DNA of 64,000 nt, from IMG/VR virus record IMGVR_UViG_3300049219_000004, one strand, 5' to 3'. The notes beneath the pieces were generated by a model. That model had not been told where the DNA came from and searched no databases. It saw nothing but the letters and a program-made list of their open reading frames with translations. Each line of letters begins with the position of its first letter. The first letter of the stretch is position 1. Below are positions 26,060 through 63,247 of the stretch, in pieces. Made by a program: the position numbers and the translations under genes. This DNA is from a virus (taxonomy: Duplodnaviria > Heunggongvirae > Uroviricota > Caudoviricetes).

Positions 26060-26893
26060 ATGGCAAACGTTAGAATTATTTACAACAACTCTGCCGACCG
26101 TGCCACTCTCTCTGCCTCTACAACGGCAGGGAGTTTGGTAGCAAGTAATATGTTGACAGACATTAAGAGCGCCGTATGGCGTTCTACAAGCACTACAGCA
26201 ACAATCACAGCAACATGGGCTGTTGGTGAAACCATTGCTGGCGTAGCCCTCCCATTCTGCAACCTCACGTCTCAAGCTACCATTCGTGTACGGGGATACA
26301 CAAACGAAGCAGATGCTTCGCCTATCTTCGACACAGGAGTTATCTACGCCTGCCCTACAAGCGTTCTAGGGCTGTTTGGATGGGGAAGTGAACCGCTAGG
26401 TGTGAACTCTTATAGCTACGGAGGAGGAGCCTACGGGCGTGCTTGGATTAATAGCCCAGCTACCGTTAAGAAGCTTGTAATCGATTTGGTAGATACGACG
26501 AACGTCTCTGGATACATCGAAGTGAGCCGTCTAGTAGCTGGACAGTATTGGGAACCTAAAATCGGAGCTGAGCAAGGAGCTACGCTGACAGTGGTGGATA
26601 CCAGTAAGCATTACAGAAATGATGCTGGGGATCAAATGACAGATCGTGGCACTCGTCACCGTAAACAGAACTTCTCTATTCCTTCCCTTGACGAACAAGA
26701 CAGGGCAAAGATGTGGGACATTCTGTGGGGTAACGGGATGGCTAGACCTGTGTTCATCAGCGTGTATCCGAATAACGCGGACTCTCGACTGGAACAGCTC
26801 CATCAACTCTACGGGAAGATGGTAACGACTCCAATCATGGGCACTCCATATTTCAATCGTAACAACGCAACAATTGATATTGAAGAGATTTAA
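26060..26893 (+). CDS. hypothetical tail-associated protein
   Basis: 277 aa, SD AAAGGAAGACATGG, co-transcribed with fiber. Confidence 0.45.
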   Translation: MANVRIIYNNSADRATLSASTTAGSLVASNMLTDIKSAVWRSTSTTATITATWAVGETIAGVALPFCNLTSQATIRVRGYTNEADASPIFDTGVIYACPTSVLGLFGWGSEPLGVNSYSYGGGAYGRAWINSPATVKKLVIDLVDTTNVSGYIEVSRLVAGQYWEPKIGAEQGATLTVVDTSKHYRNDAGDQMTDRGTRHRKQNFSIPSLDEQDRAKMWDILWGNGMARPVFISVYPNNADSRLEQLHQLYGKMVTTPIMGTPYFNRNNATIDIEEI

Positions 26894-26894
26894 C

Positions 26895-27347
26895 ATGCAA
26901 ACAATCACCGTCATTTTTACGAAACGAAAATGGAATCCGGTGTCAGGAGCGATTCGTTGGGCAATCCCGCGTAGTCGCTTCCATATTGCCAAAGCTTCTC
27001 ACTGTCTTATCCAAGATGGTGAATACGTCATCGAAGCTTCCATGACACACGGCGTTCGTCGCACGTTGATGGTTGATGCGATGAGGGGACTTGCTATTAC
27101 AGATGTCGTTAAGTTCCAAGTGTTTGACGCTGAAGCAGGACTGACATTCGCTCGTTCGCAAGTAGGTAGGAAGTACGATTTTAAAGGAGCATTCGGGTTA
27201 GCACTATATCCCGGACGCGAGTACACGGAAGACGACTCATGGTTCTGCTTTGAATTGGCCGCAGCAGCCCTCAAGGCCGCAGGACGTGATGTGTTCCGTG
27301 CTTCTAGCCATATTACAGGCACGATGCTACAGGCTATCAAGCCTTAA
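26895..27347 (+). CDS. hypothetical protein (possible papain-like peptidase fold; conserved Cys in DDSWFCFELA)
   Basis: ATG at 26895 right after upstream stop; longer frame from 26874 overlaps previous gene. Confidence 0.4.
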   Translation: MQTITVIFTKRKWNPVSGAIRWAIPRSRFHIAKASHCLIQDGEYVIEASMTHGVRRTLMVDAMRGLAITDVVKFQVFDAEAGLTFARSQVGRKYDFKGAFGLALYPGREYTEDDSWFCFELAAAALKAAGRDVFRASSHITGTMLQAIKP

Positions 27348-27374
27348 GATTAATTAATTAAGAGAGGGTAACAA

Positions 27375-27722
27375 GTGAATGTAGAAACATTGGTATACGC
27401 GCTAACTGTAGCAGTTGGGGTTATTACGGCATTGGGTGGAGTCATCTGGGCTATGCTTAGAAACGAAACTGCTAAACAAGCAGAACAATTGGAAAAGAAA
27501 GTGGACACAGACCGTCTTCGTGAAGTGGCAGCAAGTTTGACTATTGAAATCAATGACGTACGAGATAACAGCGAAAAGCTAGTTAATAAACTAGAACAAC
27601 GTCACGACAAGGAGTTGGAACAGATGGCTCACCGAGTAGGCGAACAAATCCGAGCAACAGAGCAAAACATTCTTACGCAGATTCGATTGATGATTGAAGT
27701 GTTGAAGAGTGACAGAACGTAA
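27375..27722 (+). CDS. membrane protein with N-terminal TM helix and coiled coil (holin or i-spanin candidate)
   Basis: 115 aa, GTG start with SD AGAGAGGGTAACAA; hydrophobic residues 5-27 then charged coiled coil; sits immediately before endolysin. Confidence 0.4.
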   Translation: MNVETLVYALTVAVGVITALGGVIWAMLRNETAKQAEQLEKKVDTDRLREVAASLTIEINDVRDNSEKLVNKLEQRHDKELEQMAHRVGEQIRATEQNILTQIRLMIEVLKSDRT

Positions 27723-27749
27723 TAGGGCACACGCCCAAGGAGAAACAAA

Positions 27750-28301
27750 TTGAGTATCGAAACAATTATTGACAACATCATCACAGCGGAAGGAGAGTAC
27801 TCAAACGACCCTTTGGATGCTGGCGGTGCAACGAAGTATGGCATTACATTCAGAGTGGCCCGGTCTAACGGTTACATGGGTGACATGAAAGACCTGCCAC
27901 TTTCTACAGCCAAACAAATTTACAAGAACATCTACTGGCTGGAGCCACACTTTGATAGGGTAGCAACGTTATCACCGTCCGTAGCTGAAGAGCTATGTGA
28001 TACAGGGGTGAATTGTGGTGTTGGATTCGCAGAAGGTATCTTGCAATCCTGCTTGAATCTTTTGAACAGAGAGCAAGCTGATTACAAGGACATTCCCGAA
28101 GACAAGGCCATTGGCCCTGCTACACTGAACGCTCTAGCCTCTTACCTAATCAAGCGAGGAAAAGATGGAGAGCTTGTGCTTCTTCGTATGCTGAATGTGA
28201 TGCAGGGAAATCGTTACATCGAGTTATCCAAGACAAAGCCTTCTCAAGAAGCCTTTCTGTTTGGATGGTTCTTGAACAGAGTAAAAATTAAAGGAGAATG
28301 A
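27750..28301 (+). CDS. endolysin, glycoside hydrolase family 108 N-terminal domain + PG_binding_3-like C-terminus
   Basis: 183 aa; N-terminus IETIIDNIITAEGEYSNDPLDAGGATKYGIT is the GH108 signature; TTG start with strong SD AAGGAGA. Confidence 0.8.
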   Translation: MSIETIIDNIITAEGEYSNDPLDAGGATKYGITFRVARSNGYMGDMKDLPLSTAKQIYKNIYWLEPHFDRVATLSPSVAEELCDTGVNCGVGFAEGILQSCLNLLNREQADYKDIPEDKAIGPATLNALASYLIKRGKDGELVLLRMLNVMQGNRYIELSKTKPSQEAFLFGWFLNRVKIKGE

Positions 28302-28302
28302 T

Positions 28303-28851
28303 ATGGAGTGGAAGGAACTAGGGAACGTACTAGCTAAAGCTGCACCAGCACTAGCTACCGCTCTTGGTGGGCCTCTCGCTGGAGGGGCTGTAGCGGCCCT
28401 AGAAGGCGTTTTCGGGATCACCGAAGGAGGAAGTGCCAAGGAACGTACAGAAGCGCTTGTAGCGGCTATTAGCGGTGCTACTCCCGATCAGATGTTGGCA
28501 CTGAAAAAGGCCGATCAAGACTTTGCTGTACGGATGGAAGAACTCGGAATCAAGCGAGAAGAAACTGCAAACGCAGATCGTGACTCAGCTCGTAAACGTG
28601 AATCAGATGTCAAAGACAAAACGCCACGTAATCTTGCCTATGCAATTACAGCCGGATACTTTGGGATGTTGATTTTCATGATGCTATATCCAATCCCGGC
28701 AGCTAGTCGAGATATTCTAAACTATATGTTGGGTACACTTGGGACAGCTTGGATTGCAGCAGTGACATACTACTTCGGTAGTACGAATGGAAGTTTTGAG
28801 AAGTCTAGACTCTTGGCTCAAGTTCCAGAGAAGAAAGAAGAAAAGAAATAA
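28303..28851 (+). CDS. holin-like membrane protein (two C-terminal TM helices)
   Basis: 182 aa, start overlaps endolysin stop (ATATGG); TM segments ~AYAITAGYFGMLIFMMLYPI and ~GTLGTAWIAAVTYYFG; Lys/Glu-rich tail. Confidence 0.4.
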   Translation: MEWKELGNVLAKAAPALATALGGPLAGGAVAALEGVFGITEGGSAKERTEALVAAISGATPDQMLALKKADQDFAVRMEELGIKREETANADRDSARKRESDVKDKTPRNLAYAITAGYFGMLIFMMLYPIPAASRDILNYMLGTLGTAWIAAVTYYFGSTNGSFEKSRLLAQVPEKKEEKK

Positions 28852-28874
28852 GGTTGCCTTGGTAGGGCGTGTTG

Positions 28875-28910
28875 GAGGGAAGAGGCTTATGGCTTCTCCC
28901 TCCTTTTTTA
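28875..28910 (+). terminator. rho-independent terminator at the convergence point of + and - modules
   Basis: GGAGGGAAGAGGC-TTATG-GCTTCTCCCTCC hairpin (12 bp, one bulge) + TTTTTTAT. Confidence 0.6.
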
Positions 28911-28911
28911 T

Positions 28912-29352
28912 TTACTCACTGCCAAGTTCTGCTTCCAGCTCTTCAAAGGTATCGCCCTTCACAATTACTTTCTTGACTGGCGTAGGTTTACCTTGAGGTA
29001 CAGGTTTATTACGTGCGACGAAATATGGTTTCAGTTCTCCCGCTTTGTAGGGACGAGGGCTGTCCTTGGTAGAACGTGCAGCACCCTTGATGGCAGATTT
29101 CAACTCACTCTCCATCGTCTTGATTTCATCAATCACGTCTTTGTTTTGTTCCTCTACATAAGCTTTCAGTTGCTCTTGTAGATTGGAGATTTCCTGTTTC
29201 AGTTCTTGAGCGTGTTCATCGGTTTCCTTGAAGTCTTTGATGATTTGCTTCTTCTTTTCGATGTCACGAATCCGAGGGCCAATCTCACGGCTATACTCGA
29301 TCAGGGCTACTTGCGGAGCGGTTGCTTTAGGGCTTTCTTGTTCGGCTTTCAT
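28912..29352 (-). CDS. hypothetical coiled-coil protein (146 aa)
   Basis: K/E-rich predicted coiled coil; last gene of the minus-strand module. Confidence 0.45.
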   Translation of the reverse strand: MKAEQESPKATAPQVALIEYSREIGPRIRDIEKKKQIIKDFKETDEHAQELKQEISNLQEQLKAYVEEQNKDVIDEIKTMESELKSAIKGAARSTKDSPRPYKAGELKPYFVARNKPVPQGKPTPVKKVIVKGDTFEELEAELGSE

Positions 29353-29600
29353 TCAAAAATCGCTTTCATTTTCTGGGCAATGCCAGTGGCACGGAGTGAT
29401 TCGGACAGAGCACGAGCTTTCACTTCGGACTGTGCAGCAATCACACGCTCAGCCTCTTGAGCTGCTGCTTCGTTGATTTGAGAAACGGTTTCCAGATCAG
29501 CAATAGTAGTGTTGAAGGCTTCCATCACACCGTCAACGGTGGAAGGTTTGGTAGTGTTAGCTCCGAAAATAGAGCTGAACACGGACGGTTCTTTACGCAT
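29349..29600 (-). CDS. hypothetical protein (83 aa)
   Basis: ORF with SD (AAAAGGAGAATAATAATG). Confidence 0.45.
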   Translation of the reverse strand: MRKEPSVFSSIFGANTTKPSTVDGVMEAFNTTIADLETVSQINEAAAQEAERVIAAQSEVKARALSESLRATGIAQKMKAIFE

Positions 29601-29618
29601 TATTATTCTCCTTTTAAA

Positions 29619-29792
29619 TTAGAAATAGCCCAGCAGTGCACCAAGAGGTGGCACGAAGATACCTACGATACGAATCAGAGCCATCAAGGTAATGCCGCCA
29701 TCAGCAAGGCAGATGAGTTTAACGATATTTGCTAGCCAGCCACTGATTCCGGCGATCCAGATAGCTACAATGATAAGTGAGTAAATCTTCAT
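29619..29792 (-). CDS. small hydrophobic membrane protein (57 aa), not in supplied ORF track
   Basis: ATG at 29792 preceded by AAAGGAGAAACAAAA; product MKIYSLIIVAIWIAGISGWLANIVKLICLADGGITLMALIRIVGIFVPPLGALLGYF. Confidence 0.4.
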   Translation of the reverse strand: MKIYSLIIVAIWIAGISGWLANIVKLICLADGGITLMALIRIVGIFVPPLGALLGYF

Positions 29793-29815
29793 TTTTGTTT
29801 CTCCTTTTAAGTAGT

Positions 29816-30271
29816 TTAAGTAGCCAGTGGAACATCTACCAGTACCATAAATTGCTGACGAATATCTGCATGCTTCCGAGCAAGCTCTTCAGTTTTTAGT
29901 GCAATTGCCAAGTCTTCTCGTTTTGCAAGTGTGCTAGAAATGAAGCTGCGTTCAGAAGGTGTCATCCAAGTGTCATTAATTGTGAAGTCATTTTTATCTT
30001 TTAAAAGACTCCTGAGCATCAAACTTGTGTGGGTACGGTGGTAATATACCCGTACTTCGGTTCCGCTATATCTAGGCCCTTCGACAACTTTCCAGTCCTC
30101 CAACTTCAAAAGTGATGCGGCCAAAGACTTAACAGGCTCAGAAATGTCTTGAGTTTCCTCGTCTAGAATTTCTTCCAAGTCTGCTGCATATTCCAGAGTT
30201 AACTTTAGCTCCAACTCTGGAAATTTTGATTGTTTTGAAAGCCAATTAAACATCAATCCTCCTTCAGCCAC
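29816..30271 (-). CDS. hypothetical protein, translationally coupled partner of macro-domain gene
   Basis: 151 aa, start overlaps macro-domain gene 3' end by 19 nt. Confidence 0.5.
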   Translation of the reverse strand: MAEGGLMFNWLSKQSKFPELELKLTLEYAADLEEILDEETQDISEPVKSLAASLLKLEDWKVVEGPRYSGTEVRVYYHRTHTSLMLRSLLKDKNDFTINDTWMTPSERSFISSTLAKREDLAIALKTEELARKHADIRQQFMVLVDVPLAT

Positions 30272-30732
30272 AACGTAGCGTCTACATCATGGAACACAGC
30301 TTGAAAGATAGCAGTGAGACGCTTCACGTCACCACCGCCCAGCCCACCGCCAATCATCGGTAGGTAGACAGGAAGGTTGTCAGCTAGTGCTACATCTCGC
30401 ACAGATTCTAGAGCCTTAATTACAGCGACATAGCTAACATATTGCCTACCGTCACGTCCATAGTTCTCTTGGGTAATAGCATTGCAAACAATCACTGAGG
30501 TAATGTTTGTCTTCTTCACAAACTGAGTAGAACCTAAGTCAAAACCGAAGTCGTTGTACTCTTGCTTGTAAGCTTCAAACGCATGCGGGTAGAGCTTCTT
30601 GACGAGAGCTGCTACGCCACTGCCCATCACACCTTTTGCGTTACAACCGTGAACGAAGATAACTCCTTCTCCAGCTTCATGTCTCTTCAGAAGTTCGTTG
30701 AATACATCACCAGATTCAATTTTAAGTGGCAT
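30253..30732 (-). CDS. macro domain protein (ADP-ribose binding/processing)
   Basis: 159 aa; GVIFVHGCNAKGVMGSGVAALVKK matches the macro-domain nucleotide-binding core (vvNaANxxlxxGgGVxxAI), C-terminal GGGLGGG glycine loop. Confidence 0.7.
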   Translation of the reverse strand: MPLKIESGDVFNELLKRHEAGEGVIFVHGCNAKGVMGSGVAALVKKLYPHAFEAYKQEYNDFGFDLGSTQFVKKTNITSVIVCNAITQENYGRDGRQYVSYVAVIKALESVRDVALADNLPVYLPMIGGGLGGGDVKRLTAIFQAVFHDVDATLWLKED

Positions 30733-31140: not shown

Positions 31141-31170
31141 ATTGTATTGCTACCTACCTATTCGTGTCAA
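31141..31170 (-). promoter_or_regulatory. sigma70-like promoter on minus strand (TTGACA-18-TACAAT) reading into 30.7-31.1 kb leader and macro-domain operon
   Basis: Minus-sense TTGACA (plus 31165-31170), spacer CGAATAGGTAGGTAGCAA, TACAAT (plus 31141-31146). Confidence 0.45.
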
Positions 31171-31177
31171 GAATTAA

Positions 31178-32548
31178 TTAAGCAACGTAGTGACGCTGCC
31201 CCTTTTGAGAATGTGGGCCTGCATCATAAGCTTTCTTGCCTGCTTGCTTGGCATAGGCACGGGCTTGGTCACGAGTAGCAAAGAACGTGCTCTGCACACC
31301 ATGAGGCATATGATAGCGAACACGTGCACCGTTACCAGCCGTACCCAGTGGCAGGATTGCCAGAGGCTTCACAGGGGCTACCGAAACAGCAGGTACAGGC
31401 TTCTTCGATGCTACAGGTGAAGAAGTAGGCTTGCCAGTTGCAGGAGCCTGAGCCAATACAGGCACAACAGGAGCGTTGTTCTGACCAGCGTAGCGGGTCA
31501 AATCAGCCTGCGTTACAGGACGCCCTTTCTCTGCCCAGTACAGAATACCAGTACCAGCTACCAGCTTACGATTCACCGACTCCGATTGAATGAAGATGTC
31601 ATATTCCCCGTTGCCGTGGTTAGGGTGGATACGAGCATTGTTCACGGTATCCAGACCCAGCATCTTACGAGCATCAGGGCCAGCATACACTTTGCCAGTG
31701 GACTTCTCGCGGATCAGAATCAGCTTCGAAGGAGAAACCTTCGGCTCAGTTTTAGTGAGCTGGTAGAACGCACCACCAATCAGGTATTCAGTACGCTTCG
31801 ACAGAATGAAGTCACGAATCTGGGCACCATCGTGGAATTGATCCACTACGTACAGCGAAGTTTTAGCACTGATGTCCACCAGAGCCGAAGTGTTCACAGC
31901 CGACGTGTTGGTGTAGAACACGTTAGACGATTGAGCACCAGCCGAACGAGCGGAGAAGTAGGTGTTCATTGCTTGTGCAGTAGCCGCAGTGGACTTCTCC
32001 ATACCAGCAGAAGTAGTTTCCCATTCCTGAATGTTATCAGCCGGGATGCCCAGATTCATAACAGTGCTACGATGACCAGAAGGCACGCGGACAACGAAAG
32101 TCCAACGACCTGTACGTTGAACTGCTTCAATCTTCTGACGCAGGGACTGTGCAGTGTGAATCCGCGAACTGCACTCTTCACCGTCAGTAGTAGTCATGAC
32201 GAGGAACGATACGTGAGAGTCGTTTGCATCTGGCAGCGATTGGAACAGATCGATCATGTTTGCGATACCGTCGTACAGAGGAGTACCGCCCGGAGTAGGC
32301 CAGTCAACGACAGGCTTCAGCACGTGAGGATTCGACACAACGACTTGACGCGTTACTTCAGAGTCACGCGGATAACCGAAAGCCACCACCGATACGACAG
32401 TATCCAGCATTTCACGGGTGGCTGCTTCCTTCACAGTAGTGATGGTAGAGTTGTAGTCTTTAGTTGCTGCACGAGCACGAACGCCGCGCATGCTGCCAGA
32501 GTGGTCATTAACGAAGCCAATGTAGTTCTTAGGTTGTTTTTGATTCAT
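31178..32548 (-). CDS. von Willebrand factor A (vWA) domain protein
   Basis: 456 aa; N-terminal FVNDHSGSM = MIDAS DxSxS motif, later T and D residues consistent with vWA fold; C-terminal Pro/Ala/Lys-rich linker plus unknown domain. Confidence 0.65.
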   Translation of the reverse strand: MNQKQPKNYIGFVNDHSGSMRGVRARAATKDYNSTITTVKEAATREMLDTVVSVVAFGYPRDSEVTRQVVVSNPHVLKPVVDWPTPGGTPLYDGIANMIDLFQSLPDANDSHVSFLVMTTTDGEECSSRIHTAQSLRQKIEAVQRTGRWTFVVRVPSGHRSTVMNLGIPADNIQEWETTSAGMEKSTAATAQAMNTYFSARSAGAQSSNVFYTNTSAVNTSALVDISAKTSLYVVDQFHDGAQIRDFILSKRTEYLIGGAFYQLTKTEPKVSPSKLILIREKSTGKVYAGPDARKMLGLDTVNNARIHPNHGNGEYDIFIQSESVNRKLVAGTGILYWAEKGRPVTQADLTRYAGQNNAPVVPVLAQAPATGKPTSSPVASKKPVPAVSVAPVKPLAILPLGTAGNGARVRYHMPHGVQSTFFATRDQARAYAKQAGKKAYDAGPHSQKGQRHYVA

Positions 32549-32827: not shown

Positions 32828-34480
32828 TTATTGCTTCAGGCGTGCTGCAATTTCTGCAAACGTTTGGGTGTTGACAGCTTCACCGTCCATGAACACAGTG
32901 CGGAGTTCACCTCGCCGTTCTTCAATCTCGCCTTGCTTGTCATACAGGACAAACTTACCATCCTCCAGTTCGACACGTAGAAGGCCAGTAGCAGACTTTT
33001 TCATGCCATCCCCAGTAGCAGGGTCTTTCTGAATATCCCGTGCACCGCCGTCTACTTGGCCCCACGTCGCTTTCACGGCCATACCGAAGGTATCACGAGT
33101 GATATACTGGTAGGTGTACGAGCCAACGCCGAACACAATGTTACCAGCACTAAAGCCTTTGTCCATCAAGCGTTGCAGAATTTCTTCAGCACGTCTCAAC
33201 GTGATGCTGTCACCATAGATCAGGCCGACACGTTGGTTCAGAGTCTTGTAACCCTTCTCCGTCATGTCACCACCAAACACGTCCCACAGGCATTCGACTG
33301 CGCCCTTCACTTCGTGCTCTGGTACTTCACGACCGAGGATGAGACCGAAGTGCTGGCTGGGGCCGAATTCAAACACTTTACCGAAGATACGCACCGCATC
33401 ATACTCGTCTTCCAACTTGTACGAATTTTCAACGCTCACAAACACACGTCCGTCTTCCGACTGTTTGAAATTTGCTTCCGAGATGTCTTTGACACGCAGG
33501 CCCGCGACAATCTTCACAGGATCGCCCGAGTCAGGACGGAACACAACTTTCGCCATGCCCAGACCGTTCGGGGTACGGTTCAGGATGTCTTGACGCAGCA
33601 CAGCGGCAAACTCTGTAATCACTTTCCAGAAGTCCCACGTATCCGAGACGATGGACACGATGCCCGAAGGGTAGACATCCTTGATTAGACGGCGGAACGT
33701 GCGAATCTCGCTGTCTTTGCCACCCATGCACATTACGGAGTGTTCCGTGGCAGGTACGGAGCCAGCTACCAGTTCCTTCGTAACGTCAGCACCGTAGTAC
33801 TCTTCCAGATAATCCACAGCCGGAAGGGTATCAGTGCCACGCGAGATGAACAGATGAGCAGCACCAGCCTTAGCGGCACTCTGCCAGCCACACATACCAC
33901 GCATCGAGAAGTCATGAATCTGCCAGTCAGCAAATTCTTTAGACGAACCCGTGAGTTCCACGTATTTGTTCAGAATACGACGGTATTCGTAAGTAATGGT
34001 AGCTACGGTGATTTGTTGCCACAGCTCGTCCGACAGGACAGTTTCCAGATAATTCGTCAGCCAATAAAACTGAGGCAAAGTGTTACGAATCGTCAGGAAC
34101 GGAACTTTAATATCTACACGACTACCTTCAGGCAGGGCTTTGATGATGATAGGCAGATAGCCCAAATCATGCAGAGCTGCAATATGATCGGTGCGTACTG
34201 CGTTCTCACCTAGGAACGTATCACAGCGACGTTTGTACTCAGCAATCACTTCGTCCTTTGGACGCTTGAAGAAGTGTTCGTTCCACGCTTCAATCAGGAA
34301 CTCTTGGACGAAGCCTCGCAAGCCAACGAATACAACTTTGTTGTCGAACATGTCGCCCATATTAGCGTGAGCAGCACTACGAGCTGTCAGATTGGAATAC
34401 ACATAATCGGTGCCTTCCGGGTACTGGTCGATGTGACCTAGCTTGTAGCTATCCAGAATCAGATGTGGTTTGATTTTCAT
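32828..34480 (-). CDS. nicotinamide phosphoribosyltransferase-like protein (NAMPT/NadV family; candidate Namat of a NARP1-type NAD+ reconstitution pathway)
   Basis: 550 aa; N-terminal NAMPT region (MKIKPHLILDSYKLGHIDQYPEGTDYVYSN.., GYLPIIIKALPEG) and overall length typical of NAMPT; adjacent to Prs-like gene. Confidence 0.85.
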   Translation of the reverse strand: MKIKPHLILDSYKLGHIDQYPEGTDYVYSNLTARSAAHANMGDMFDNKVVFVGLRGFVQEFLIEAWNEHFFKRPKDEVIAEYKRRCDTFLGENAVRTDHIAALHDLGYLPIIIKALPEGSRVDIKVPFLTIRNTLPQFYWLTNYLETVLSDELWQQITVATITYEYRRILNKYVELTGSSKEFADWQIHDFSMRGMCGWQSAAKAGAAHLFISRGTDTLPAVDYLEEYYGADVTKELVAGSVPATEHSVMCMGGKDSEIRTFRRLIKDVYPSGIVSIVSDTWDFWKVITEFAAVLRQDILNRTPNGLGMAKVVFRPDSGDPVKIVAGLRVKDISEANFKQSEDGRVFVSVENSYKLEDEYDAVRIFGKVFEFGPSQHFGLILGREVPEHEVKGAVECLWDVFGGDMTEKGYKTLNQRVGLIYGDSITLRRAEEILQRLMDKGFSAGNIVFGVGSYTYQYITRDTFGMAVKATWGQVDGGARDIQKDPATGDGMKKSATGLLRVELEDGKFVLYDKQGEIEERRGELRTVFMDGEAVNTQTFAEIAARLKQ

Positions 34481-34507
34481 TTGTTCTCCTTTGGTTGTTA
34501 AGTAAGA

Positions 34508-35086
34508 CTACATAGTAGCAGATAGTTTTACGAATGTACAGCCCCTGTGTGACTTTCTTTTGCCAAGCAAGACTGCGGATATAAGGCGGAAGTCAAAGCC
34601 CTTCCGCTTCATATCTTCGTTACCGTACATGGTTGTCACGAGTTTTCCAGCTTTGTCATATACCTCCACAGCCCCGGTGAATGCGAAAGCTTTAGCAGCG
34701 AACGGGTGATCAACAAATAGGCCGCTATCAATGGCATGATCTTTGTTCTCTTCGTTAGTCGCCCACTCTAAGTTGCTGATAATGTTATTAGTCTTATCCC
34801 CGTCTTTGTGGTTTACTTGAGGTTTGTCGTCGGGGTTAGGAACGAAAGCCTCTGCTACTAGCCGGTGTACCTTTCTAGTGAACTTACTGCCGCCCACGCT
34901 GAGGCGTACGCGAGAGTATCCCCGCTTGTCAGGGTGGGGAGCTAACACTACCCCACCAATAACACGACTTGGCTTGTTATCACTGAAAGTCAGGAGCCTT
35001 ACAACACTTCTGACCTTCCCATGATTACTAACCTCGTAAAACCCTTCGAAGCCATTACAGCTTTTCCAAGATTCCGTAGGTGTCAT
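34508..35086 (-). CDS. HNH homing endonuclease (NUMOD4/HNH_3 type) inserted between NAMPT-like and Prs-like genes
   Basis: 192 aa; N-terminal ..WKSCNGFEGFYEVSNHGKVRS.. and ..HRLVAEAFVPNP..KPQVNHKDGDKTNNIISNLEWAT.. are hallmark free-standing phage HNH endonuclease motifs; overlaps Prs-like gene start. Confidence 0.7.
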   Translation of the reverse strand: MTPTESWKSCNGFEGFYEVSNHGKVRSVVRLLTFSDNKPSRVIGGVVLAPHPDKRGYSRVRLSVGGSKFTRKVHRLVAEAFVPNPDDKPQVNHKDGDKTNNIISNLEWATNEENKDHAIDSGLFVDHPFAAKAFAFTGAVEVYDKAGKLVTTMYGNEDMKRKGFDFRLISAVLLGKRKSHRGCTFVKLSATM

Positions 35087-35870
35087 TCGCCTTGTCCCTT
35101 CTCATATCATTCGCCACGTAAATCTTATCCAGTACACCGTGGAACTTGTCCACGCCAGCGCTGAACAGTCCGTGGGTAACGTACAAGCAAATCTTCCCAG
35201 TTGTGAGCTTGCGTAGCTCTGTAGCAAGAGCCACAAACGTCCCGCCAGCATCAAGAATGTCGTCCACGATTAGGAAGTCTTGGTTGCCGATGTGTGGGAT
35301 ACCAACGGTGCTGGTAGCTACAATCTTACCGCTAGCAAGGTCGCGTACCTTGCTAGCTTGTACAAAACCAACGAAGCCGCCCTCTTGTGCAAATTTGTGT
35401 GCTTTCTTCGATGCTCCTGAGTCAGGAGCTACGATGATAGTGTTAGCAATGTTTTTACGCAACTGTGGACGGCTCGACATCGCCCATTGTTCATGTACTA
35501 CAGTGTTATTGAACAAAGCAGCAGTAACATCTGAATGCGGGTCGAGGATGCAGACGGCTTCAAAGTTTAAGGCATTGATGAAGTCTGCTACTACTTTAAT
35601 GGACAAGCTTTCACCTTCATTGCAAACACGGTCTTGACGAGCGTAAGGCGCATATCCCATCCACAGTTTCAACTTCTTAGTCGGAAACTTCCTGCGGCAG
35701 GCATCAGCCAATAAGGCTAGATCGAATAGATCACCGTTATTCTCGAACGCCAGTTCCAGAGTTAGGTCAGGTTCCAATGGAGAGTTCATGGTTACACGAA
35801 TGCACGACTCACCTCCGGGGAACGTTGTCTTGGTGAAGCCTTCGGGGTAGCCTACAATATGAACGCTCAT
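35055..35870 (-). CDS. ribose-phosphate pyrophosphokinase (PRPP synthetase)-like protein; candidate ADP-ribose pyrophosphate synthetase (Adps) of NARP1
   Basis: 271 aa; PRPP-binding loop FLIVDDILDAGGTFVALATEL and ILDPHS motif of Prs family; shorter than bacterial Prs. Confidence 0.8.
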   Translation of the reverse strand: MSVHIVGYPEGFTKTTFPGGESCIRVTMNSPLEPDLTLELAFENNGDLFDLALLADACRRKFPTKKLKLWMGYAPYARQDRVCNEGESLSIKVVADFINALNFEAVCILDPHSDVTAALFNNTVVHEQWAMSSRPQLRKNIANTIIVAPDSGASKKAHKFAQEGGFVGFVQASKVRDLASGKIVATSTVGIPHIGNQDFLIVDDILDAGGTFVALATELRKLTTGKICLYVTHGLFSAGVDKFHGVLDKIYVANDMRRDKANDTYGILEKL

Positions 35871-37255: not shown

Positions 37256-37741
37256 TTAGCTATTTTCTGTCAAGTAGTTTGGAAAAATAATTTCGCATTT
37301 GTCCTGCAACAGATCGAGAGCATCAGCACTGATACGGAGCGGATACAGAATAGCCCGCTTCTCTAGAGCAATCATCCGGTGAAGCATGTCCAAACTTCCG
37401 GTACTCTCTCCGTCCCATACAACCAACGCACAATCTGCCACCTGTGCCATTTCCTCGTTACGCCAGTGACCCGCCAACAAATTAAATGGCTTGCCATTCT
37501 TATTGTAACGAACGACAGCGCCGGCAGCTTTGATATCGTCCCAGTTCGCAGGCTTAGCGATTGGCTTCTTCAGTCCAGCTTTCTCTGCGAAGATGAGTCC
37601 ATGCTTATCTGGGCCTTCAGCAAGCCCAGAGACGACGACAATACTCTTCCCGTATTGATGCCACAAACCGCTGTTGATAATAGCTTGACGCGTGATGTTA
37701 TAGTCTTTAATGCTACGAGAGCCTGCGATAATTAGCTTCAT
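37256..37741 (-). CDS. SLOG-superfamily (DprA/LOG-like, DUF2493-type) Rossmann-fold protein
   Basis: 161 aa; MKLIIAGSRSI..VVVSGLAEGPDKHGLIFAEKAG matches the GSR..SGxAxGxD motif of Smf/DprA-LOG nucleotide-binding domains. Confidence 0.5.
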   Translation of the reverse strand: MKLIIAGSRSIKDYNITRQAIINSGLWHQYGKSIVVVSGLAEGPDKHGLIFAEKAGLKKPIAKPANWDDIKAAGAVVRYNKNGKPFNLLAGHWRNEEMAQVADCALVVWDGESTGSLDMLHRMIALEKRAILYPLRISADALDLLQDKCEIIFPNYLTENS

Positions 37742-48561: not shown

Positions 48562-48641
48562 TGGAGCGTCTGGAGGGATTCGAACCCACATTGACTCCGG
48601 TTACGATGCTCTGGTGTAGAAGACCAGTTCGGTACAGACGC
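48562..48641 (-). other. tRNA-like element (possible aberrant tRNA-Arg TCT or tRNA 3'-half remnant)
   Basis: Minus-sense GCGTCTG..[CTGGT-CTTCTAC-ACCAG]..GTGGG-TTCGAAT-CCCTC-CAGACGC-T-CCA: perfect 7-bp acceptor, T-arm with TTCGAAT loop, CCA, candidate anticodon hairpin, but no D-arm and a 20-nt extra region. Confidence 0.35.
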
Positions 48642-50582: not shown

Positions 50583-50776
50583 ATTTCACAGATGCCTACC
50601 ATCAAGAAAATCGCAACGGAAACAGTAGACATGCAAAGCCCACCGATCATTGTTTTGTGAGACATATGCGAAGTTCTAAAATCGAAGAGCAAGGCGTTCG
50701 CAAGCATGCTAATAAGGGCCAGTGGAAGTCCGCTCAGTAGTAAAGTACCGCTGACCTTCATAAGGAACTCTACCAT
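50570..50776 (-). CDS. small membrane protein (68 aa), possible NfeD-like partner of SPFH protein
   Basis: Two hydrophobic helices; start overlaps SPFH gene stop (ATGA). Confidence 0.4.
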   Translation of the reverse strand: MVEFLMKVSGTLLLSGLPLALISMLANALLFDFRTSHMSHKTMIGGLCMSTVSVAIFLMVGICEIWTR

Positions 50777-50777
50777 A

Positions 50778-51569
50778 TTATTTCCCTGCGTTCACGATAC
50801 CTTTGAAGTCGTAAGGAACGACGATGGTCTGAACCTTACCTTCCGCGATGCCTTCAGCAATCTTCATTTGAGCCTGAGCATTCATGTAGCTGATGGCACC
50901 TGCATTGGCGTTCAGGGCAGCGATACGTTCAGCTTCTTTCTTCGCAGTGCTCACTTGTACTTCTTTAGCTGCCAGCTCGGCTTTAGCCTGTACCAGTTGG
51001 TTAGCAGCATTGCTTACAGCAGCAGATGGAGCAATACTCTTCACTTGCACTTGAGATACGAGCAGGGAACCATCCAGCTTCTCACCTTTCAAAGTTTCCC
51101 TGATTTGGTCAAGAAGTTTCGCTTCAATTTCGGTACGAGAATCATTCATCTGAAGCGAAGGGTACTCCCGTGCCACTTTAAATACAGCATTACGTACAGT
51201 GGTTTGAAGGTACGAGTGCATCAGATAAGTAGTACCATCATCTGCCGAAGCGTGGAAGCTGTGGCTCTTATTGGTGTACAGATCAGAGACGCTGCTAGGG
51301 CTGATGTTGTACACCACCGTTACATCGAAGTCGGACATGGTGCTGTTGTCCGCTGCCAGTGGACTCAGGTTTTGTACGTCTACAGAAATCTCTCGTACTG
51401 GAAACTTCAGGATGTCACCTACAATCGTTTGATTGAAGGAACCAGCTACACGTTCCGTAGCTTCTACAGTTTTATCGAAGTTAACACGAAGGCCAACCTC
51501 GCCGGTGTTGATGCGGGTACAGCCGGTGAAAGCGATGGCAAATGCCAGTGCTGCAAAAATTTTCTTCAT
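50778..51569 (-). CDS. SPFH/band-7 (prohibitin-like) domain lipoprotein
   Basis: 263 aa; lipobox AFTGC, then ..GEVGLRVNFDKTVEATERVAGSFNQTIVGDILKFPVREISVDV.. SPFH core and C-terminal coiled coil. Confidence 0.65.
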   Translation of the reverse strand: MKKIFAALAFAIAFTGCTRINTGEVGLRVNFDKTVEATERVAGSFNQTIVGDILKFPVREISVDVQNLSPLAADNSTMSDFDVTVVYNISPSSVSDLYTNKSHSFHASADDGTTYLMHSYLQTTVRNAVFKVAREYPSLQMNDSRTEIEAKLLDQIRETLKGEKLDGSLLVSQVQVKSIAPSAAVSNAANQLVQAKAELAAKEVQVSTAKKEAERIAALNANAGAISYMNAQAQMKIAEGIAEGKVQTIVVPYDFKGIVNAGK

Positions 51570-51601
51570 TTATTTCTCCTTATGTTGGTTAGTGAGGTAG
51601 T

Positions 51602-51630
51602 ATTATCTACCTTTTTCGTCGTAGTGTCAA
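51602..51630 (-). promoter_or_regulatory. sigma70-like promoter, minus strand (TTGACA-17-GATAAT)
   Basis: Minus-sense TTGACA (plus 51625-51630), GATAAT (plus 51602-51607), upstream of SPFH gene SD. Confidence 0.45.
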
Positions 51631-51911
51631 GCGTTTTCTGCGAACATTTTATCCTGTAGCTGCGACATTACACGCAGCTCTAGCTGAGTGAAATCTGCAT
51701 TAATTAGGCACTTAGCTACAGGATCACGAACACGTTCCATATTTTTCACCAATACGTTGGTAACGTAGTTCTGCATCATGTCTCGTTGACGTTTTTCGAA
51801 GGCATCCAGTTCTTCCAATTCCTTCTTACGTACTTCTACATCTGCGTCAATATGACGGAAAGCTGCTTCTTGACGTTGTTCGAAGGTGCCACGATTCTTT
51901 GCTTGGCCCAT
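51627..51911 (-). CDS. hypothetical protein (94 aa, charged/helical)
   Basis: ORF with SD (GGGATAAACATG). Confidence 0.4.
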   Translation of the reverse strand: MGQAKNRGTFEQRQEAAFRHIDADVEVRKKELEELDAFEKRQRDMMQNYVTNVLVKNMERVRDPVAKCLINADFTQLELRVMSQLQDKMFAENA

Positions 51912-51986
51912 GTTTATCCCTCAACCATCAGCATAACCATGCTGACAGCGAAAACGATTCCAATGAAATACCACATTATTTGCTCC

Positions 51987-52151
51987 TTACTTGGTAGACT
52001 GTTGCACATTTTTAACAACTTTCTCCAGTGCCGTAGCAGTGTAAGGTTGCTTAGTATCCATCAGGCTACCGCCCAGCGTCACAACGTCTGCTACCAGAGC
52101 CACAGGGGTTTCAACAACCAGACCTACAGCCGCTTTCAAAATTCCAAACAT
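51987..52151 (-). CDS. small hydrophobic protein (54 aa), not in supplied ORF track
   Basis: ATG at 52151 preceded by ACAACTAAAGGAGAAGAAA and a consensus promoter ~30 nt upstream; product MFGILKAAVGLVVETPVALVADVVTLGGSLMDTKQPYTATALEKVVKNVQQSTK. Confidence 0.3.
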   Translation of the reverse strand: MFGILKAAVGLVVETPVALVADVVTLGGSLMDTKQPYTATALEKVVKNVQQSTK

Positions 52152-52183
52152 TTTCTTCTCCTTTAGTTGTTACGACAAGTAGG

Positions 52184-52212
52184 ATAATAAACACTATCTA
52201 CCTACTTGTCAA
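52184..52212 (-). promoter_or_regulatory. near-consensus sigma70 promoter, minus strand (TTGACA-17-TATTAT)
   Basis: Minus-sense TTGACA (plus 52207-52212), spacer AGTAGGTAGATAGTGTT, TATTAT (plus 52184-52189). Confidence 0.55.
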
Positions 52213-52391
52213 CACTTATTTATGCTTGACTCTCGCCTTCAGCGTCATCGAAGCCATCTTCCCATTCAGAGTGTTCTGGTGAACCCTCCTGATAAGGGTT
52301 CTCGTCACGTTCCCAACCTTCACGAAACGCCTTCTTACCCTCGTAATACTCCTCTGCTACAAACATCAATCCTCCTTTAATGTTGTTTTTG

Positions 52392-55300
52392 TCAATGGCA
52401 CGTGGCCCAATTTGTCCCTAACATGTAACCAGCAGTAAGCTCCACCTTCAGCTTGTAGTACTTACCAGCGTCCGTTACTGCTTTCGTAGCAAGCTCACCA
52501 GCACGATTATAAGCCACGTAGAAGCATTTGTCAGTGTGTCCGATGTCAGACCATACCTTATCGGTTTGAGCCTCTTTAAACGCTGCTGCTGCCTTCTTAG
52601 CGGCCTTAGCTTCAGGGCTTAGTTCCATCTTACCTTCTTCGTTCAACACTTCGTACGGGCCGTCGAACTTAAACATCTTGAACTGGACACTAGCCTTGCT
52701 CACTTCACACTGAGCTTCATCATGGTACGCAATTAGTTGCTGAGCAAAATGCTCCTTATCTTCAAGTTTAGCCTTCCAGTCATCACGGAAGAAGTCAACA
52801 GACAGCCCTTCTTCTTTCAGGTAGCGGTCATGCAACACCATAGCACGTTTCGCACAGATAACGCCACAACTTTGGAAAGCAGTGTTAATTACGTTCCCCT
52901 TCGAACGAATCGGAAGTTTCCTTCCGTCGATTCCTAGCAGGAACTTCTTCCCGCCAGTGGACTCCCAATAAGCTTGCATCGCTTCCTTCAACTGCTTCAA
53001 CGGGAAAGCCTTCTCCCAGAACGCGTTGAAAATAATTGTTGCTTCTTCAATGGTACAGCCAACCGTTTTCGCCACTCGGGCAATCTGCGCATTATATGAG
53101 CAGTTACCTGTGACAGTCAGAACGCCACCCTGCCGGATAACAAATGTGTCAAACCCTGTAGTCAAACAGAATACATCCACCTTACGTGTAGGTTTAAACT
53201 CTCCAGTCTGAAATCCAGTCCATCGAGTAGCTGAGCCACGAACTGTTTTGCACGTCTCACTTCCTCGTACAGTGACTTTCCGACCTGTCAACATCAAAGC
53301 TACGGCAATCGCGTCAGCAATATTGCCATCGTTCTGCCTTATCTCCACAGCATTTTTCACCGTAGTACGACCGTCAGCTTTCCAACTAGCAGAGATGAAC
53401 GCCTCCAAAGCCGGGTACGAGAGTTTAACAATCCAACTAACCCAATCAATATCGTGCTTCGATACATTTAACGGCAGGCCACACCGAAACATGAGCGCCC
53501 TAAAGTCGTCAGAATTAATTCGAAATTCAGTCATCTCATTGTAGGTGTACTCCGTGAACTGGATACCTGCAAGCGCTAAATCCTGTTGAACGTCCTTATG
53601 GAATTTCTTTTGGGACTGTCCAATACTCGCCACAACGCCGTTAGCTTGTCCGAACGAATTCTGACGCGCAGAGTCTTTGCCCGACCACTTCCAATATCCA
53701 TCAGTCAGCAGCCAACCAACAACAGCAGCATCAACAGCAGATACATCGCTTCCTCCTTCGTGAAACTGTGCGGTGTTAAGGATAGACGAGTTGGTTTGCA
53801 AATCAAAGCCATACTCCATACATGGGAGATTGTGACTTTCATACCCAGTCTTCGCTACCCACCTATGGTCTTCGGTGCATTCTACGTTCCAGCGTCTGTT
53901 TCCTAGAAGGCCCACTTCAGCATCTTTGTAGAATTGCTTATCACTGACCTTCGTCCATCCAAGTTGGTCATTTGCTGCATTGTAGCCCATAACAACATCA
54001 CCCACGTATATGTCAGCTTGTCTCTTCCACCCTTTCGAAGTTAGAACCTCTGTGTTGTCTACAGGAAGGCACCCGTACTTAACGTTCTTAGCCGTTCCAC
54101 GAGGGAACGGCCTACCAAGCAGCTCCGAAATGTACGCAGCAAGTACAGTGTGGCAGTCGTTTGGCTTCTCTGCCGTCAGCGATAGTCCATACTCGGGGCC
54201 GCCCGGATAACGGTAGGTATAGTGTGCCTCTACCTTGGCCTCCAGCGAATCGAAATCATAGCCCATCTGGTAGAAATACTCGTCCACCCCGAACAACTCT
54301 CGCATCTCACTCCCGTACATCGAAGTGACACGAGGGATGTTAGCCACCAGTCGGTGTTTAAACCGGCTTGTAGCAGCTCCACAGGTATCTGCTGGAGTTG
54401 GGATACGTCCATCGACATCAATTCGCGGAACGCTCATCCAACCCTTCTGCATGTCCTCTTCATCGTCTGGGTCAATACCTCCGCCAAGAATACTGTTACG
54501 TCGGTGCTTGTACGTCAGATAGTGTGAAATCTCCTTTGCGTAAGGGAACTTCTCCGACAATTTTACTAATTCTGGATCTATTTCCTTTTCCATACCCACT
54601 GTCAGCGTAGGATTGGTGTACACCTTCAACGGTCGCTTCAGATGCTCATGTTCTAGCAGCTTACGTAGCACGTATTCCTTGCTGACACGGGGAGAGTATT
54701 CCATCTCTTCCAGCCTGTCAGTTTTGAACGGGCTATCGAAAGTTTGGTCAACCCACTTCGTCACAGCTTCGATGTACTTCTCACGGGTCAGCTTCTTCTT
54801 CTTGCTGTCAACCGTCAAATCACGTTCCTTGTACTGGCTAGGATTCCACCCCATCGAAACAAGCCATTGCTTGATGTGTAGCGTGTCATCCAGCTTAGCT
54901 GGTTCTTCGGTAACGATTGGCTCTGGCTCCATCGGCAGCGTGTACGTCTTCCCGTACATTTCTGCTGTCCACACACCATCCACTTCCTTGAACTCACCTC
55001 CATGCTTCTTAGCGAAGTTCAGAATGTGAACGATAGGTTCACCGTTCTTCTTAAACTGCTTAGAAGTAGGAGTCATATCTGCCAGTCGAGTTTTAGTCAA
55101 AGGCTTCAATGGGATAAGTGGTTCAACTTTCTCCCGTAGCTCTTCCATCTTTGCATCCAAGAATCGGACGTTCTCTACAGCTTTCACCTTGTTGAAAGCG
55201 AAGCCACGATGTTCCTGACGTGTGATGATTTCAGCTACAGCTTTCTCAAGCTCGTATGCATCGTCCCAGTCCCAGTCGCCCCATTCGTTCTTCAGCCAGC

Positions 55301-55877: not shown

Positions 55878-55901
55878 GCCTTCTCCTTTTTATCATTCAT
55901 T

Positions 55902-56090
55902 TTAGTATCCCAGAATTGCATATGTGTCGTCAGGGAATTCTGACTTCAACATGTTCTTGTTGTAGTTAGCCAGTTCAACAGAGGTAGTCTCCGCACGCTT
56001 GAGAAGCTTTCCGTTGTAGTCTCTAAGAGAGCAAGTACGCCAGTTGGTTCCTTCGCACTTACGCATTACCTTGTAAATTGTTTGTTTCAT
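55902..56090 (-). CDS. hypothetical small protein (62 aa)
   Basis: ORF with SD AAGGAGAGAACATG. Confidence 0.35.
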   Translation of the reverse strand: MKQTIYKVMRKCEGTNWRTCSLRDYNGKLLKRAETTSVELANYNKNMLKSEFPDDTYAILGY

Positions 56091-56181
56091 GTTCTCTCCT
56101 TAAAACGGGAGGGTTGCTATGTCTTCGTCCGAATATCCTTCAGCCTTCCTCTCAGCAACCCATTCTTTATGGGTTTGAATT

Positions 56182-57930: not shown

Positions 57931-57959
57931 TCTCTTCTCCTTGGGTCAGTTAAGACGCT

Positions 57960-57988
57960 ATCGTACACTACCTACGTAGCTATGTCAA
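57960..57988 (-). promoter_or_regulatory. sigma70-like promoter, minus strand (TTGACA-17-TACGAT)
   Basis: Minus-sense TTGACA (plus 57983-57988), spacer TAGCTACGTAGGTAGTG, TACGAT (plus 57960-57965). Confidence 0.5.
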
Positions 57989-58003
57989 TGCTCTCATAAA
58001 TAG

Positions 58004-58024
58004 AAAAAGCCGCCCGAAGGCGGC
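58004..58024 (-). terminator. rho-independent terminator (minus strand)
   Basis: GCCGCC-CGAA-GGCGGC preceded on plus strand by AAAAA. Confidence 0.55.
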
Positions 58025-58130
58025 ATTCACTTAGTTAGTATCAATAAGCAGACACATAAAGCCGATGACATACCAGTACCACGCTGCATCAAAATTAATG
58101 CAGACAAGCAATGCAAACAACGCTACCATT

Positions 58131-59926: not shown

Positions 59927-59956
59927 ATTTTCTCCTTGAGTTAGTTATAAGGAGGT

Positions 59957-59985
59957 AGCTTACACTACCTACCTAAGTTTGTCAA
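59957..59985 (-). promoter_or_regulatory. sigma70-like promoter, minus strand (TTGACA-17-TAAGCT)
   Basis: Minus-sense TTGACA (plus 59980-59985), spacer AACTTAGGTAGGTAGTG, TAAGCT (plus 59957-59962). Confidence 0.5.
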
Positions 59986-63095: not shown

Positions 63096-63247
63096 TCATC
63101 CTCCTTGCAGTACTCTTCCATCGCGTAGTCGTAGCCACTCCAGTTATCGACGCCAGCCCCTTCCAGACAGGACAACTTCCAATCACGATCCTGAAGTCTG
63201 TCATACTCTTTCTTGGAAATCGTAATTTCTTCGTTGTTCTCGCTCAT
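63092..63247 (-). CDS. small acidic protein (51 aa), not in supplied ORF track
   Basis: ATG at 63247; product MSENNEEITISKKEYDRLQDRDWKLSCLEGAGVDNWSGYDYAMEEYCKEDE; stop overlaps ThyX-like start (ATGA). Confidence 0.3.
   Translation of the reverse strand: MSENNEEITISKKEYDRLQDRDWKLSCLEGAGVDNWSGYDYAMEEYCKEDE

Follow-up and report, generated by a model that had tools for sequence, protein, structure and literature searches.

The stretch of DNA analysed here, which we refer to as the window, comprises 64 kb (64,000 nucleotides, about 85 genes) of the tailed-virus record IMGVR_UViG_3300049219_000004, and contains a pair of genes for a Prs-like and an NAMPT-like protein with a gene for an HNH endonuclease between them. 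From right to left, the three open reading frames (ORFs) are adps (35055..35870), encoding a putative Prs-like ADP-ribose pyrophosphokinase of 271 residues; the gene of a free-standing, I-HmuI-like HNH homing endonuclease of 192 residues (34508..35086, 579 bp); and namat (32828..34480), encoding a putative NAMPT-like nicotinamide ADP-ribose transferase of 550 residues. Coordinates, lengths and the single orientation, on the minus strand, correspond exactly to those of a first-pass annotation, which had read the two outer genes as NARP1, pathway 1 of NAD+ reconstitution in phages, where Adps and Namat would be the first and the second enzyme, respectively. The genes adps and namat are co-oriented and 574 nucleotides apart, with the HNH ORF as the only one between them; all three ORFs are intact and no terminator is predicted between them. 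Unless otherwise stated, the features given below are on the minus strand.

The source phage is an uncultured, siphovirus-like, environmental tailed phage of about 89 kb, about 25 kb of which are left out of the window. The exact proteins, in the same gene order, were found on at least 13 public metagenomic contigs, each of about 89 kb. A megablast search of the locus against deposited phages gave no match and no close cultured relative, and the top protein identities to deposited phages were 52% for Namat and 41% for Adps.

The 271-residue protein showed the Pfam domains Pribosyltran_N, Pribosyltran and Pribosyl_synth and was assigned to phrog_619 in PHROG. By blastp, it is 39% identical to the Adps of phage ICP1 (139 bits), as compared to 28% for E. 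coli Prs (75 bits). On the NCBIfam Prs models it scored 52-122 bits and the validated ICP1 Adps 34-98 bits, whereas E. coli Prs reached 423-533 bits on its best-fitting models; none of the Prs equivalog cut-offs (296-536 bits) was reached by the window protein, which gave 52-110 bits on those models. The structural features described for Adps (PMC13586617) point in the same direction. In fact, the RF loop is of the Adps type ('YARQDRVCNEGE-SLSIK', also given as 'RQDRVCNEGE-SLS') as compared to 'YARQDRRVRSARVPITAK' in Prs, the beta-hairpin 'KVRDLASGKIV' is two residues longer than the Prs hairpin, and the C-terminal helices of Prs are missing (271 versus 315 residues). All the residues highlighted by the ICP1 Adps structure (F18, R87, H121, D161, K185, D212, D213 and D216) are kept. 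On this evidence, consisting of scores, identities, loops and length, the protein appears to behave like a validated Adps and unlike cellular Prs.

The 550-residue protein showed the Pfam domains NAMPT_N and NAPRTase and was assigned to phrog_448. It scored 488 bits to the crystal structure of SPbetaL1 Namat (9W5X) versus about 207 bits to mammalian NAMPTs, and it is 45% identical (415 bits) to the Namat that adjoins the validated ICP1 Adps. Of the 20 residues that contact NAD+ in SPbetaL1 Namat, 17 are identical, including F189, R192, D215, R306, D308, R399 and D400; the exceptions are F392, replaced by Tyr, A362, replaced by Ser (a backbone contact), and Arg40', located in the variable SCL loop. 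A His aligned to SPbetaL1 H245, within the conserved ATEHS segment, is also present, and we take it to be the catalytic histidine. The helix that forms the selectivity (adenine) clamp of Namat carries the motif GSYTYQYITRD (residues 453-463; 33092..33124), which corresponds to GSFTYQYNTRD in SPbetaL1 and GSYTYQYVTRD in ICP1. The Nampt comparators for this motif were those of Xcc, which has GGALLQKVDRD, and of mammals. The motif was found in 88 of 90 collected homologs, nearly all of them Adps-linked, and in partial form (GAQTYQRNTRD) in PDB 9KE8. With respect to SPbetaL1, the protein also contains an insertion of about 63 residues (residues ~328-390; 33311-33499) between 'GDPVKIVAG' and 'EHEVKGAVECLW'. 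In close relatives the length of this segment varies widely, from about 10 to 65 residues, and the insertion may be a surface loop or a mini-domain.

By definition, NARP1 consists of an Adps-clade Prs homolog beside a Namat-clade NAMPT homolog (Osterman et al., bioRxiv 10.1101/2024.02.11.579819). It is already known from about 4% of phages, the original survey having counted 859 loci, and as published it functions as two genes (bioRxiv 10.1101/2024.02.11.579819). We collected related loci from IMG/VR with Namat as the query (Adps alone as the query gave no confirmed locus), and an adps gene was found in the flank of about 75 of the 80 loci. Genes of the Nmnat, NadR, PnuC and Nudix families were searched for with Pfam in the approximately 85 genes of the 64-kb window, with CTP_transf_like and Nudix as the families to be expected of an Nmnat partner, and none was found. 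NARP2 (Nampt and Nmnat) and NARP3 (PnuC and NadR) were for this reason rejected as candidates, no partner gene being present within the window. Every sequence-level test carried out agrees with the first-pass annotation on the nature of the pair, including the two comparisons that it had proposed: the Prs-like protein resembles Adps by NCBIfam scores, blastp and loops, and the NAMPT-like protein resembles Namat by its score to 9W5X and by the clamp motif. Assignment of the pair to NARP1 appears to be well supported, and homology and motifs suggest that ADP-ribose and ADP-ribose pyrophosphate would be the substrates chosen by the respective enzymes.

The HNH protein consists of a NUMOD4 domain (Pfam, E=1.5e-13), an HNH_3 domain (E=7e-12) and a C-terminal DNA-binding part, and the profile of its family matched I-HmuI (1U3E) over the full length (E=1.5e-25). 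It retains every column that is invariant across seven aligned junction HNHs, the HNH_3 region included. No paralog is present in the window, where this is the single HNH gene. A group I intron around the gene was considered and rejected, given that Rfam gave no match in 34300-35300 at E up to 1 and that the HNH forms an ORF of its own, preceded by its own ribosome site.

Thirteen related IMG/VR loci, whose Namat is 58-82% identical to that of the window, share the order p65-adps-[junction]-namat-p84-p456-Macro. The junction is readable in 11 of them (drawn from L001-L009 and L011-L013), the other two being truncated upstream of namat, and the HNH of the window is absent from all 11. In three of these relatives adps and namat are contiguous. 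In the remainder the junction holds unrelated small ORFs, and that of L005 a different endonuclease (HNH_3 plus AP2; L005:5451-6029) which overlaps the start of namat. Such varied occupants indicate that the adps/namat junction is an insertion hotspot. The HNH gene is therefore a genuine insertion relative to the close relatives, as the first-pass annotation had maintained. By contrast, its statement that the HNH gene overlaps the start of the Prs-like gene turned out to be incorrect: since the genes run from right to left, the HNH start (35086) falls within the last 11 Prs-like codons, and the 32-nucleotide overlap (35055-35086) involves the 3' end of adps.

The inserted cassette is about 600 bp long, from about 35108 to 34505, and begins after adps codon 254. 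At its far end it precedes the conserved ACCAAGGAGAA..ATG block of namat. The similarity of Adps to all its close relatives stops at residue 254 ('...YVAN'). Past this point the relatives continue with 'PVGATGRAAVESGKV..' ('NPVGATG...') and the window with 'DMRRDKANDTYGILEKL' (codons 255-271 and stop, 35055..35108, delimited by alignment with the relatives), so that the last 19 or so codons of the adps of this clade are replaced. The new tail results from reading, in the frame of adps, the ribosome site, ATG and first codons of the HNH gene: a Shine-Dalgarno-like sequence for the HNH gene (GAGAAGGGA, 35095..35103) lies inside the adps coding sequence, and 8 nucleotides separate it from the ATG at 35086. 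Adps of the HNH-bearing IMG/VR contig L014 has a tail collinear with that of the window. Tails of this type, 'W..N..GRNxxGI(L/F)', occur in the HNH-bearing L014, FBKp34, FKP3 and phiTE, while about 75 HNH-less loci all lack them. Moreover, the HNH-less KpS8 Adps ends with '...HDWTENF', exactly where that of FBKp34 continues with '...HPWMENISGRNEHGILKEIRSGF', and at the DNA level the FBKp34 extension is again the HNH Shine-Dalgarno sequence, ATG and first codons in the adps frame. Taken together, the KpS8/FBKp34 comparison and the reading of the DNA indicate that the cassette is located at the stop codon of adps, which now terminates inside the cassette. The possibility that the shared 'GIL' tail is a native feature of some lineages was rejected on the same grounds, KpS8 stopping earlier and none of the approximately 75 HNH-less loci having it. 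In annotation practice, an Adps that ends in '...GRNxxGIL...' signals an HNH cassette.

We also observed that several short assemblies of the same phage among JGI metagenome contigs (L182, L183, L171) stop within or at the HNH cassette; among the short assemblies, one stops 26 nucleotides past the adps stop and one begins 252 nucleotides before namat. Population heterogeneity or repeats at this spot could be the reason.

The same arrangement was found in other phages. Among deposited phages, each of the best tblastn matches of the HNH protein is flanked by a Prs-like and an NAMPT-like gene and overlaps the 3' end of the former. They belong to Klebsiella phages FKP3 and FBKp34 (Stephanstirmvirinae), Pectobacterium phage phiTE (Vequintavirinae; phiTE_193-195), Pseudoalteromonas phage H101 and Alteromonas phage PT11-V22; Erwinia phage Omen (Ounavirinae, 116 bits) and, by profile search, contig L014 have the same adps/HNH/namat junction. 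For Pectobacterium phage CB7, a free-standing HNH (CB7_243) with Prs (CB7_242) and NAMPT (CB7_244/246) as numbered neighbours (CB7_242-244) was tabulated in 2020 (PMC7344957, Table 3). In Aeromonas phage ZPAH1 (Straboviridae, 128 bits) the HNH gene is at the other end of the Prs-like gene. Altogether, at least nine other phage lineages have an HNH of this lineage next to adps, eight at the same junction and ZPAH1 at the opposite side. These occurrences contradict the view, expressed in the first-pass annotation, that the arrangement of the window is a distinctive one.

In the first six junction lineages the HNH homologs scored 148-212 bits. The profile search of IMG/VR returned 80 HNH relatives, of which only the one on L014 occupies a NARP1 junction; the remaining 79 score at most 126 bits and lie away from NARP1. 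Omen and ZPAH1 fall within the score range of non-junction relatives, and the score alone separates the lineage imperfectly. In every pair compared, the identity between the HNH proteins is equal to or higher than that between the adjacent adps products (47% versus 23% for the window and H101). Recurrence at the junction, these identities and the full-length match to I-HmuI indicate a mobile endonuclease lineage specialised on adps. In its stronger form, in which an I-HmuI-like lineage is specialised on the adps stop-codon region in NARP1, moves from one phage family to another, unrelated one and takes flanking adps sequence along, this proposal is tentative, and we would put it at a little under an even chance. 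If true, homing would allow an anti-defence operon to be exchanged between co-infecting phages and to undergo marker exclusion. We found no paper in which HNH or homing endonucleases are connected with NARP1, Adps or Namat, and we did not find the junction-specific HNH lineage, or its read-through footprint on Adps, described before.

Two further observations concern the phages with an occupied junction. phiTE (L085, 4360-4944) and CB7 contain a second NUMOD4-HNH gene, which splits namat in two, and selfish endonucleases of several kinds seem to be drawn to NARP1 loci. In FBKp34 (L082, 1-1666), genes for a PnuC-like NMN (nicotinamide mononucleotide) transporter and for a NadR-like kinase/adenylyltransferase, a NARP3-like set in divergent orientation, adjoin adps-HNH-namat. 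In this phage, two routes that restore NAD+ may lie next to each other.

With regard to expression, namat is preceded by a strong ribosome-binding site (AGGAG, 34486..34490), contained in the conserved ACCAAGGAGAA block that in the relatives also precedes the first gene after adps. The first-pass annotation had proposed that the NAMPT gene acquired a promoter of its own, with TACTAT as the -10 element. This hexamer is indeed present at 34517-34512, while the promoter itself lacks support and was rejected. Its best -35 element, TGTACA at a spacing of 17 nucleotides, is poor, the consensus match (8/12) being under the scan threshold, and over 8 kb we counted 12 promoter-like sites as compared to 9.0 ± 2.5 in shuffled sequences, which is the level of chance; since such sites are no commoner than in the shuffles, they are no evidence of an acquired promoter. 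Both enzymes are probably expressed within a long leftward operon. A terminator-like hairpin at 31201-31180 (in the region 31141..31201) would mark its end, and a promoter-like TTGACA-18-TACAAT (11/12, 31170-31141) stands ahead of the unit of a Macro-domain gene described below, both as consensus matches.

Considering these results together, we think it likely that the locus is a NARP1 operon that rebuilds NAD+, as homology suggests, and that a selfish HNH passenger has lodged at the adps stop and left the enzymes intact, as comparison with related loci indicates. By homology, Adps would use ATP to pyrophosphorylate ADP-ribose, the product of NADases of the SIR2, TIR and DSR type, to ADP-ribose pyrophosphate, and Namat would join the latter to nicotinamide, giving NAD+. 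The regenerated NAD+ would blunt abortive-infection defences that act by depleting NAD+. Comparison shows that the HNH cassette inserted at the stop of adps, changed the tail of Adps and spared both enzymes; we take it to be a passenger outside the NARP1 pathway. In a mixed infection, its endonuclease would nick or cut HNH-less adps/namat junctions, and repair from the HNH-bearing genome would copy the cassette and flanking adps sequence into the recipient; this model of spread is drawn by analogy with I-HmuI and with free-standing endonucleases of the T4 type.

Several points speak against this interpretation. As to the passenger, the activity and the target site of the HNH protein are ones that we infer by analogy, our search found no HNH-less genome at the strain level that would show recent movement within the lineage, and the clade-specific C-terminal tail of Adps ('NPVGATGRAAVESGKV..') is lost in the window. 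As to the enzymes, the Prs-like protein just passes the cut-off of the broad Prs subfamily TIGR01251 (122 versus 113 bits), which ICP1 Adps does not reach, and the Adps catalytic and acceptor residues that it keeps are also found in E. coli Prs and are hence non-discriminating. Moreover, its PP loop, DDILDAGGTF (35218-35247), is close to the canonical DDMIDTGGTL of Prs and is the most Prs-like among the aligned Namat-linked homologs; all close relatives (59-73% identity) have DDICDGGRTF and ICP1 has DDICDGAASF, and this departure from the relatives possibly reflects a difference in donor binding. Finally, the SCL loop of Namat is five residues longer than that of SPbetaL1, and Ala37/His38 stand opposite the adenine-stacking Arg40, in a loop within which the alignment is unreliable; the criterion applied was an adenine-stacking Arg, Lys or Tyr at loop position 3 or at the next residue. 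Single mutations in the SCL loop cost Namat only 1.3-1.7-fold activity (PMC12774641).

Of the points on the passenger, the last two would also fit an operon damaged by the insertion, in which case the replaced Adps tail or polarity of the HNH gene would cripple NARP1, and the HNH gene itself would perhaps be a decaying, immobile relic. Apart from the lost tail and the missing HNH-less sibling that would show recent mobility, the position of the HNH gene inside the operon can be quoted in its favour, and so can the N-terminus of the HNH protein, which in FKP3 and phiTE is already truncated with respect to the ancestral start. Nevertheless, we regard damage of this kind as unlikely. The three ORFs of the window are intact and their ribosome sites good, all catalytic residues are kept, among them the equivalent of Lys185 in Adps and Arg306, Asp215 and the His aligned to H245 in Namat, and the HNH protein retains the invariant columns mentioned above. 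The HNH-less KpS8 Adps ends about nine residues past the equivalent of the breakpoint, which implies that the long tail is dispensable. Furthermore, the arrangement persists in many cultured, viable phages, and the exact proteins of the window recur on the metagenomic contigs already described.

A different explanation, directed at the enzymes, is that the pair carries out classical salvage: the Prs-like protein would make phosphoribosyl pyrophosphate (PRPP), the NAMPT-like protein would make NMN from PRPP and nicotinamide, and host enzymes would complete the synthesis of NAD+, so that the two genes would be an auxiliary metabolic pair of nucleotide and NAD metabolism with no recycling of ADP-ribose. 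The names given by Pfam, PHROG and NCBIfam all read Prs and NAMPT/NAPRT, but the validated ICP1 and SPbetaL1 enzymes bear identical names. The TIGR01251 score and the PP loop fit this explanation, as does the fact that Namat keeps about half of the PRPP activity of NAMPT in vitro (PMC12774641). Against them stand the Prs-like scores, which are like those of ICP1 Adps and far under every Prs equivalog cut-off, the Namat-specific aromatic clamp motif, and the lack of an Nmnat partner within the 64 kb. In addition, 97% of Adps-clade genes adjoin Namat in the published survey, while cellular prs genes almost never do (bioRxiv 10.1101/2024.02.11.579819). We therefore consider classical salvage quite improbable, slightly more so than a damaged operon. 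Least credible of all is a domesticated HNH that forms part of the module, for instance as a regulator of the operon or as a nuclease against host or competitor DNA, a role for which one could invoke the tight and repeated association of the lineage with adps in at least nine other phage lineages and the single HNH of the window, but which is hard to reconcile with its absence from the eleven readable close relatives and from about 75 of 80 sampled NARP1 loci, with the two-gene function of published NARP1, and with a junction that in the relatives holds unrelated small ORFs or an HNH+AP2 endonuclease, as is typical of a hotspot of selfish insertion.

Downstream of the NARP1 pair, a gene that was not mentioned in the first-pass annotation is relevant to an extended form of the pathway. 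It encodes a Macro-domain protein of 159 residues (30253..30732; PF01661, 28.5 bits in Pfam; phrog_335, 'phosphatase', in PHROG) and is the third gene downstream of namat, a position kept in 13 of 13 relatives. In the extended pathway, NARP1-AP, the phosphatase Adpp dephosphorylates the ADPR-1''-phosphate (ADPR, ADP-ribose) made by aRES (bioRxiv 10.64898/2026.01.28.702374). Compared profile to profile (hhalign) with the Macro proteins embedded in NARP1 operons, the window protein gave a probability of 99.4% (E=5e-21). Its match to Poa1p had an E-value of about 1e-5, with BT1257, SCO6735 and DarG ranking above. NARP1-AP is defined by a PF01661, PF14519 or PF20016 gene within two genes of the NARP1 pair, and the Macro gene, as the third gene downstream, lies beyond this distance and apparently in a transcription unit of its own. 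The Macro gene of FADO is not adjacent to the FADO NARP1 genes. A role of the window protein as an Adpp-like accessory of the NARP1-AP type is plausible, and it may extend the pathway to ADPR-1''-phosphate, which suggests that this phage clade may also cope with RES-type phosphorolysis of NAD+.

Between namat and the Macro gene lies the gene of a 456-residue protein, p456 (31178-32548), with an N-terminal vWA/MIDAS domain. Its MIDAS motif is invariant (D15, S17 and S19), and the beta-rich domains that follow the vWA domain had no structural match. The family includes more than 1,000 metagenomic homologs that are unannotated and lack any Pfam domain, and in contig L171 the gene is split into ORFs of 95 and 359 residues. 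We found no support for a link between p456 and NAD chemistry. Upstream in the adps operon, a gene for a SLOG/DprA-like protein, p161 (37256-37741; weak Pfam matches to DNA_processg_A and YAcAr; phrog_289), has homologs a few kb from NARP1 in two distant loci (L017 and L028); in phage pf16, a DprA-like gene lies two genes past namat. As an associate of NARP1 p161 was rejected, the two additional loci being too weak a basis.

In the rest of the window we found genes for lambda-like head proteins, a Mu-type portal, a family A DNA polymerase, ribonucleotide reductase and ThyX. Rfam identified three tRNA genes, at 3357-3444 (+), 3591-3663 (+) and 48565-48641 (-), two of which lie among structural genes close to the left end of the window. 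One gene among those at 26060-30271 or 50706-63989 matched the T7 gp5.9 RecBCD inhibitor family (PF25708, Pfam, E=9e-19) and would be a second candidate counter-defence gene; the same gene set also includes Pfam matches to a dATP/dGTP diphosphohydrolase and a YfbR-like deoxynucleotidase.

NARP1 is known from Bas63, SPbetaL1, FADO and ICP1 (bioRxiv 10.1101/2024.02.11.579819; structures in PMC12774641 and PMC13586617). The locus of the window resembles these systems in the order adps then namat, the Adps-type loops, the catalytic Lys, the clamp motif, the NAD+-contact residues and the lack of a nearby Nmnat. It differs from them in that its proteins are only 39-45% identical to validated or validated-adjacent enzymes, in the 579-bp HNH gene between the two genes and the chimeric C-terminus of Adps, in the more Prs-like PP loop, and in the approximately 63-residue insertion and longer SCL loop of Namat. 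It is also a reminder that database names (Prs, NAMPT) still conceal NARP1 operons. With phiTE, CB7, FBKp34, FKP3, H101, PT11-V22 and Omen the window shares the HNH lineage (41-50% full-length identity), the position of the gene at the 3' end of adps, the overlap and the orientation. However, its phage is unrelated to Vequintavirinae, Stephanstirmvirinae, Ounavirinae and the others, and the second HNH that splits namat in phiTE and CB7 is not present.

The HNH protein has the NUMOD4-HNH architecture and C-terminal DNA-binding region of I-HmuI (1U3E). Like the genes of the free-standing MobE and Seg proteins of T4, its gene has entered a site between conserved genes or at their ends. In common with I-HmuI, MobE and Seg, the element is polymorphic in its presence or absence and has a footprint of flanking sequence that travels with it. 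Unlike the intron-encoded I-HmuI, the putative HNH endonuclease of the window is free-standing, without an intron. Its recurrent lineage at adps/namat offers a testable case of a selfish endonuclease bound to an anti-defence locus.

As in NARP1-AP (Adps-Adpp-Namat, Vibrio phage Gary), the window has a Macro gene near NARP1, homologous to the operon-embedded ones, and this nearby Adpp-like candidate is a further addition. It differs from NARP1-AP in being the third gene downstream, behind a terminator-like hairpin and with a promoter-like site of its own, and in that Poa1p is not the closest structural relative of its product, with uncharacterised macrodomains, SCO6735 and DarG being closer. 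Overall, the pathway is a known one, and its arrangement with an interrupting HNH gene was present in GenBank from 2012 and tabulated in print in 2020; the window is a divergent, environmental example of it.

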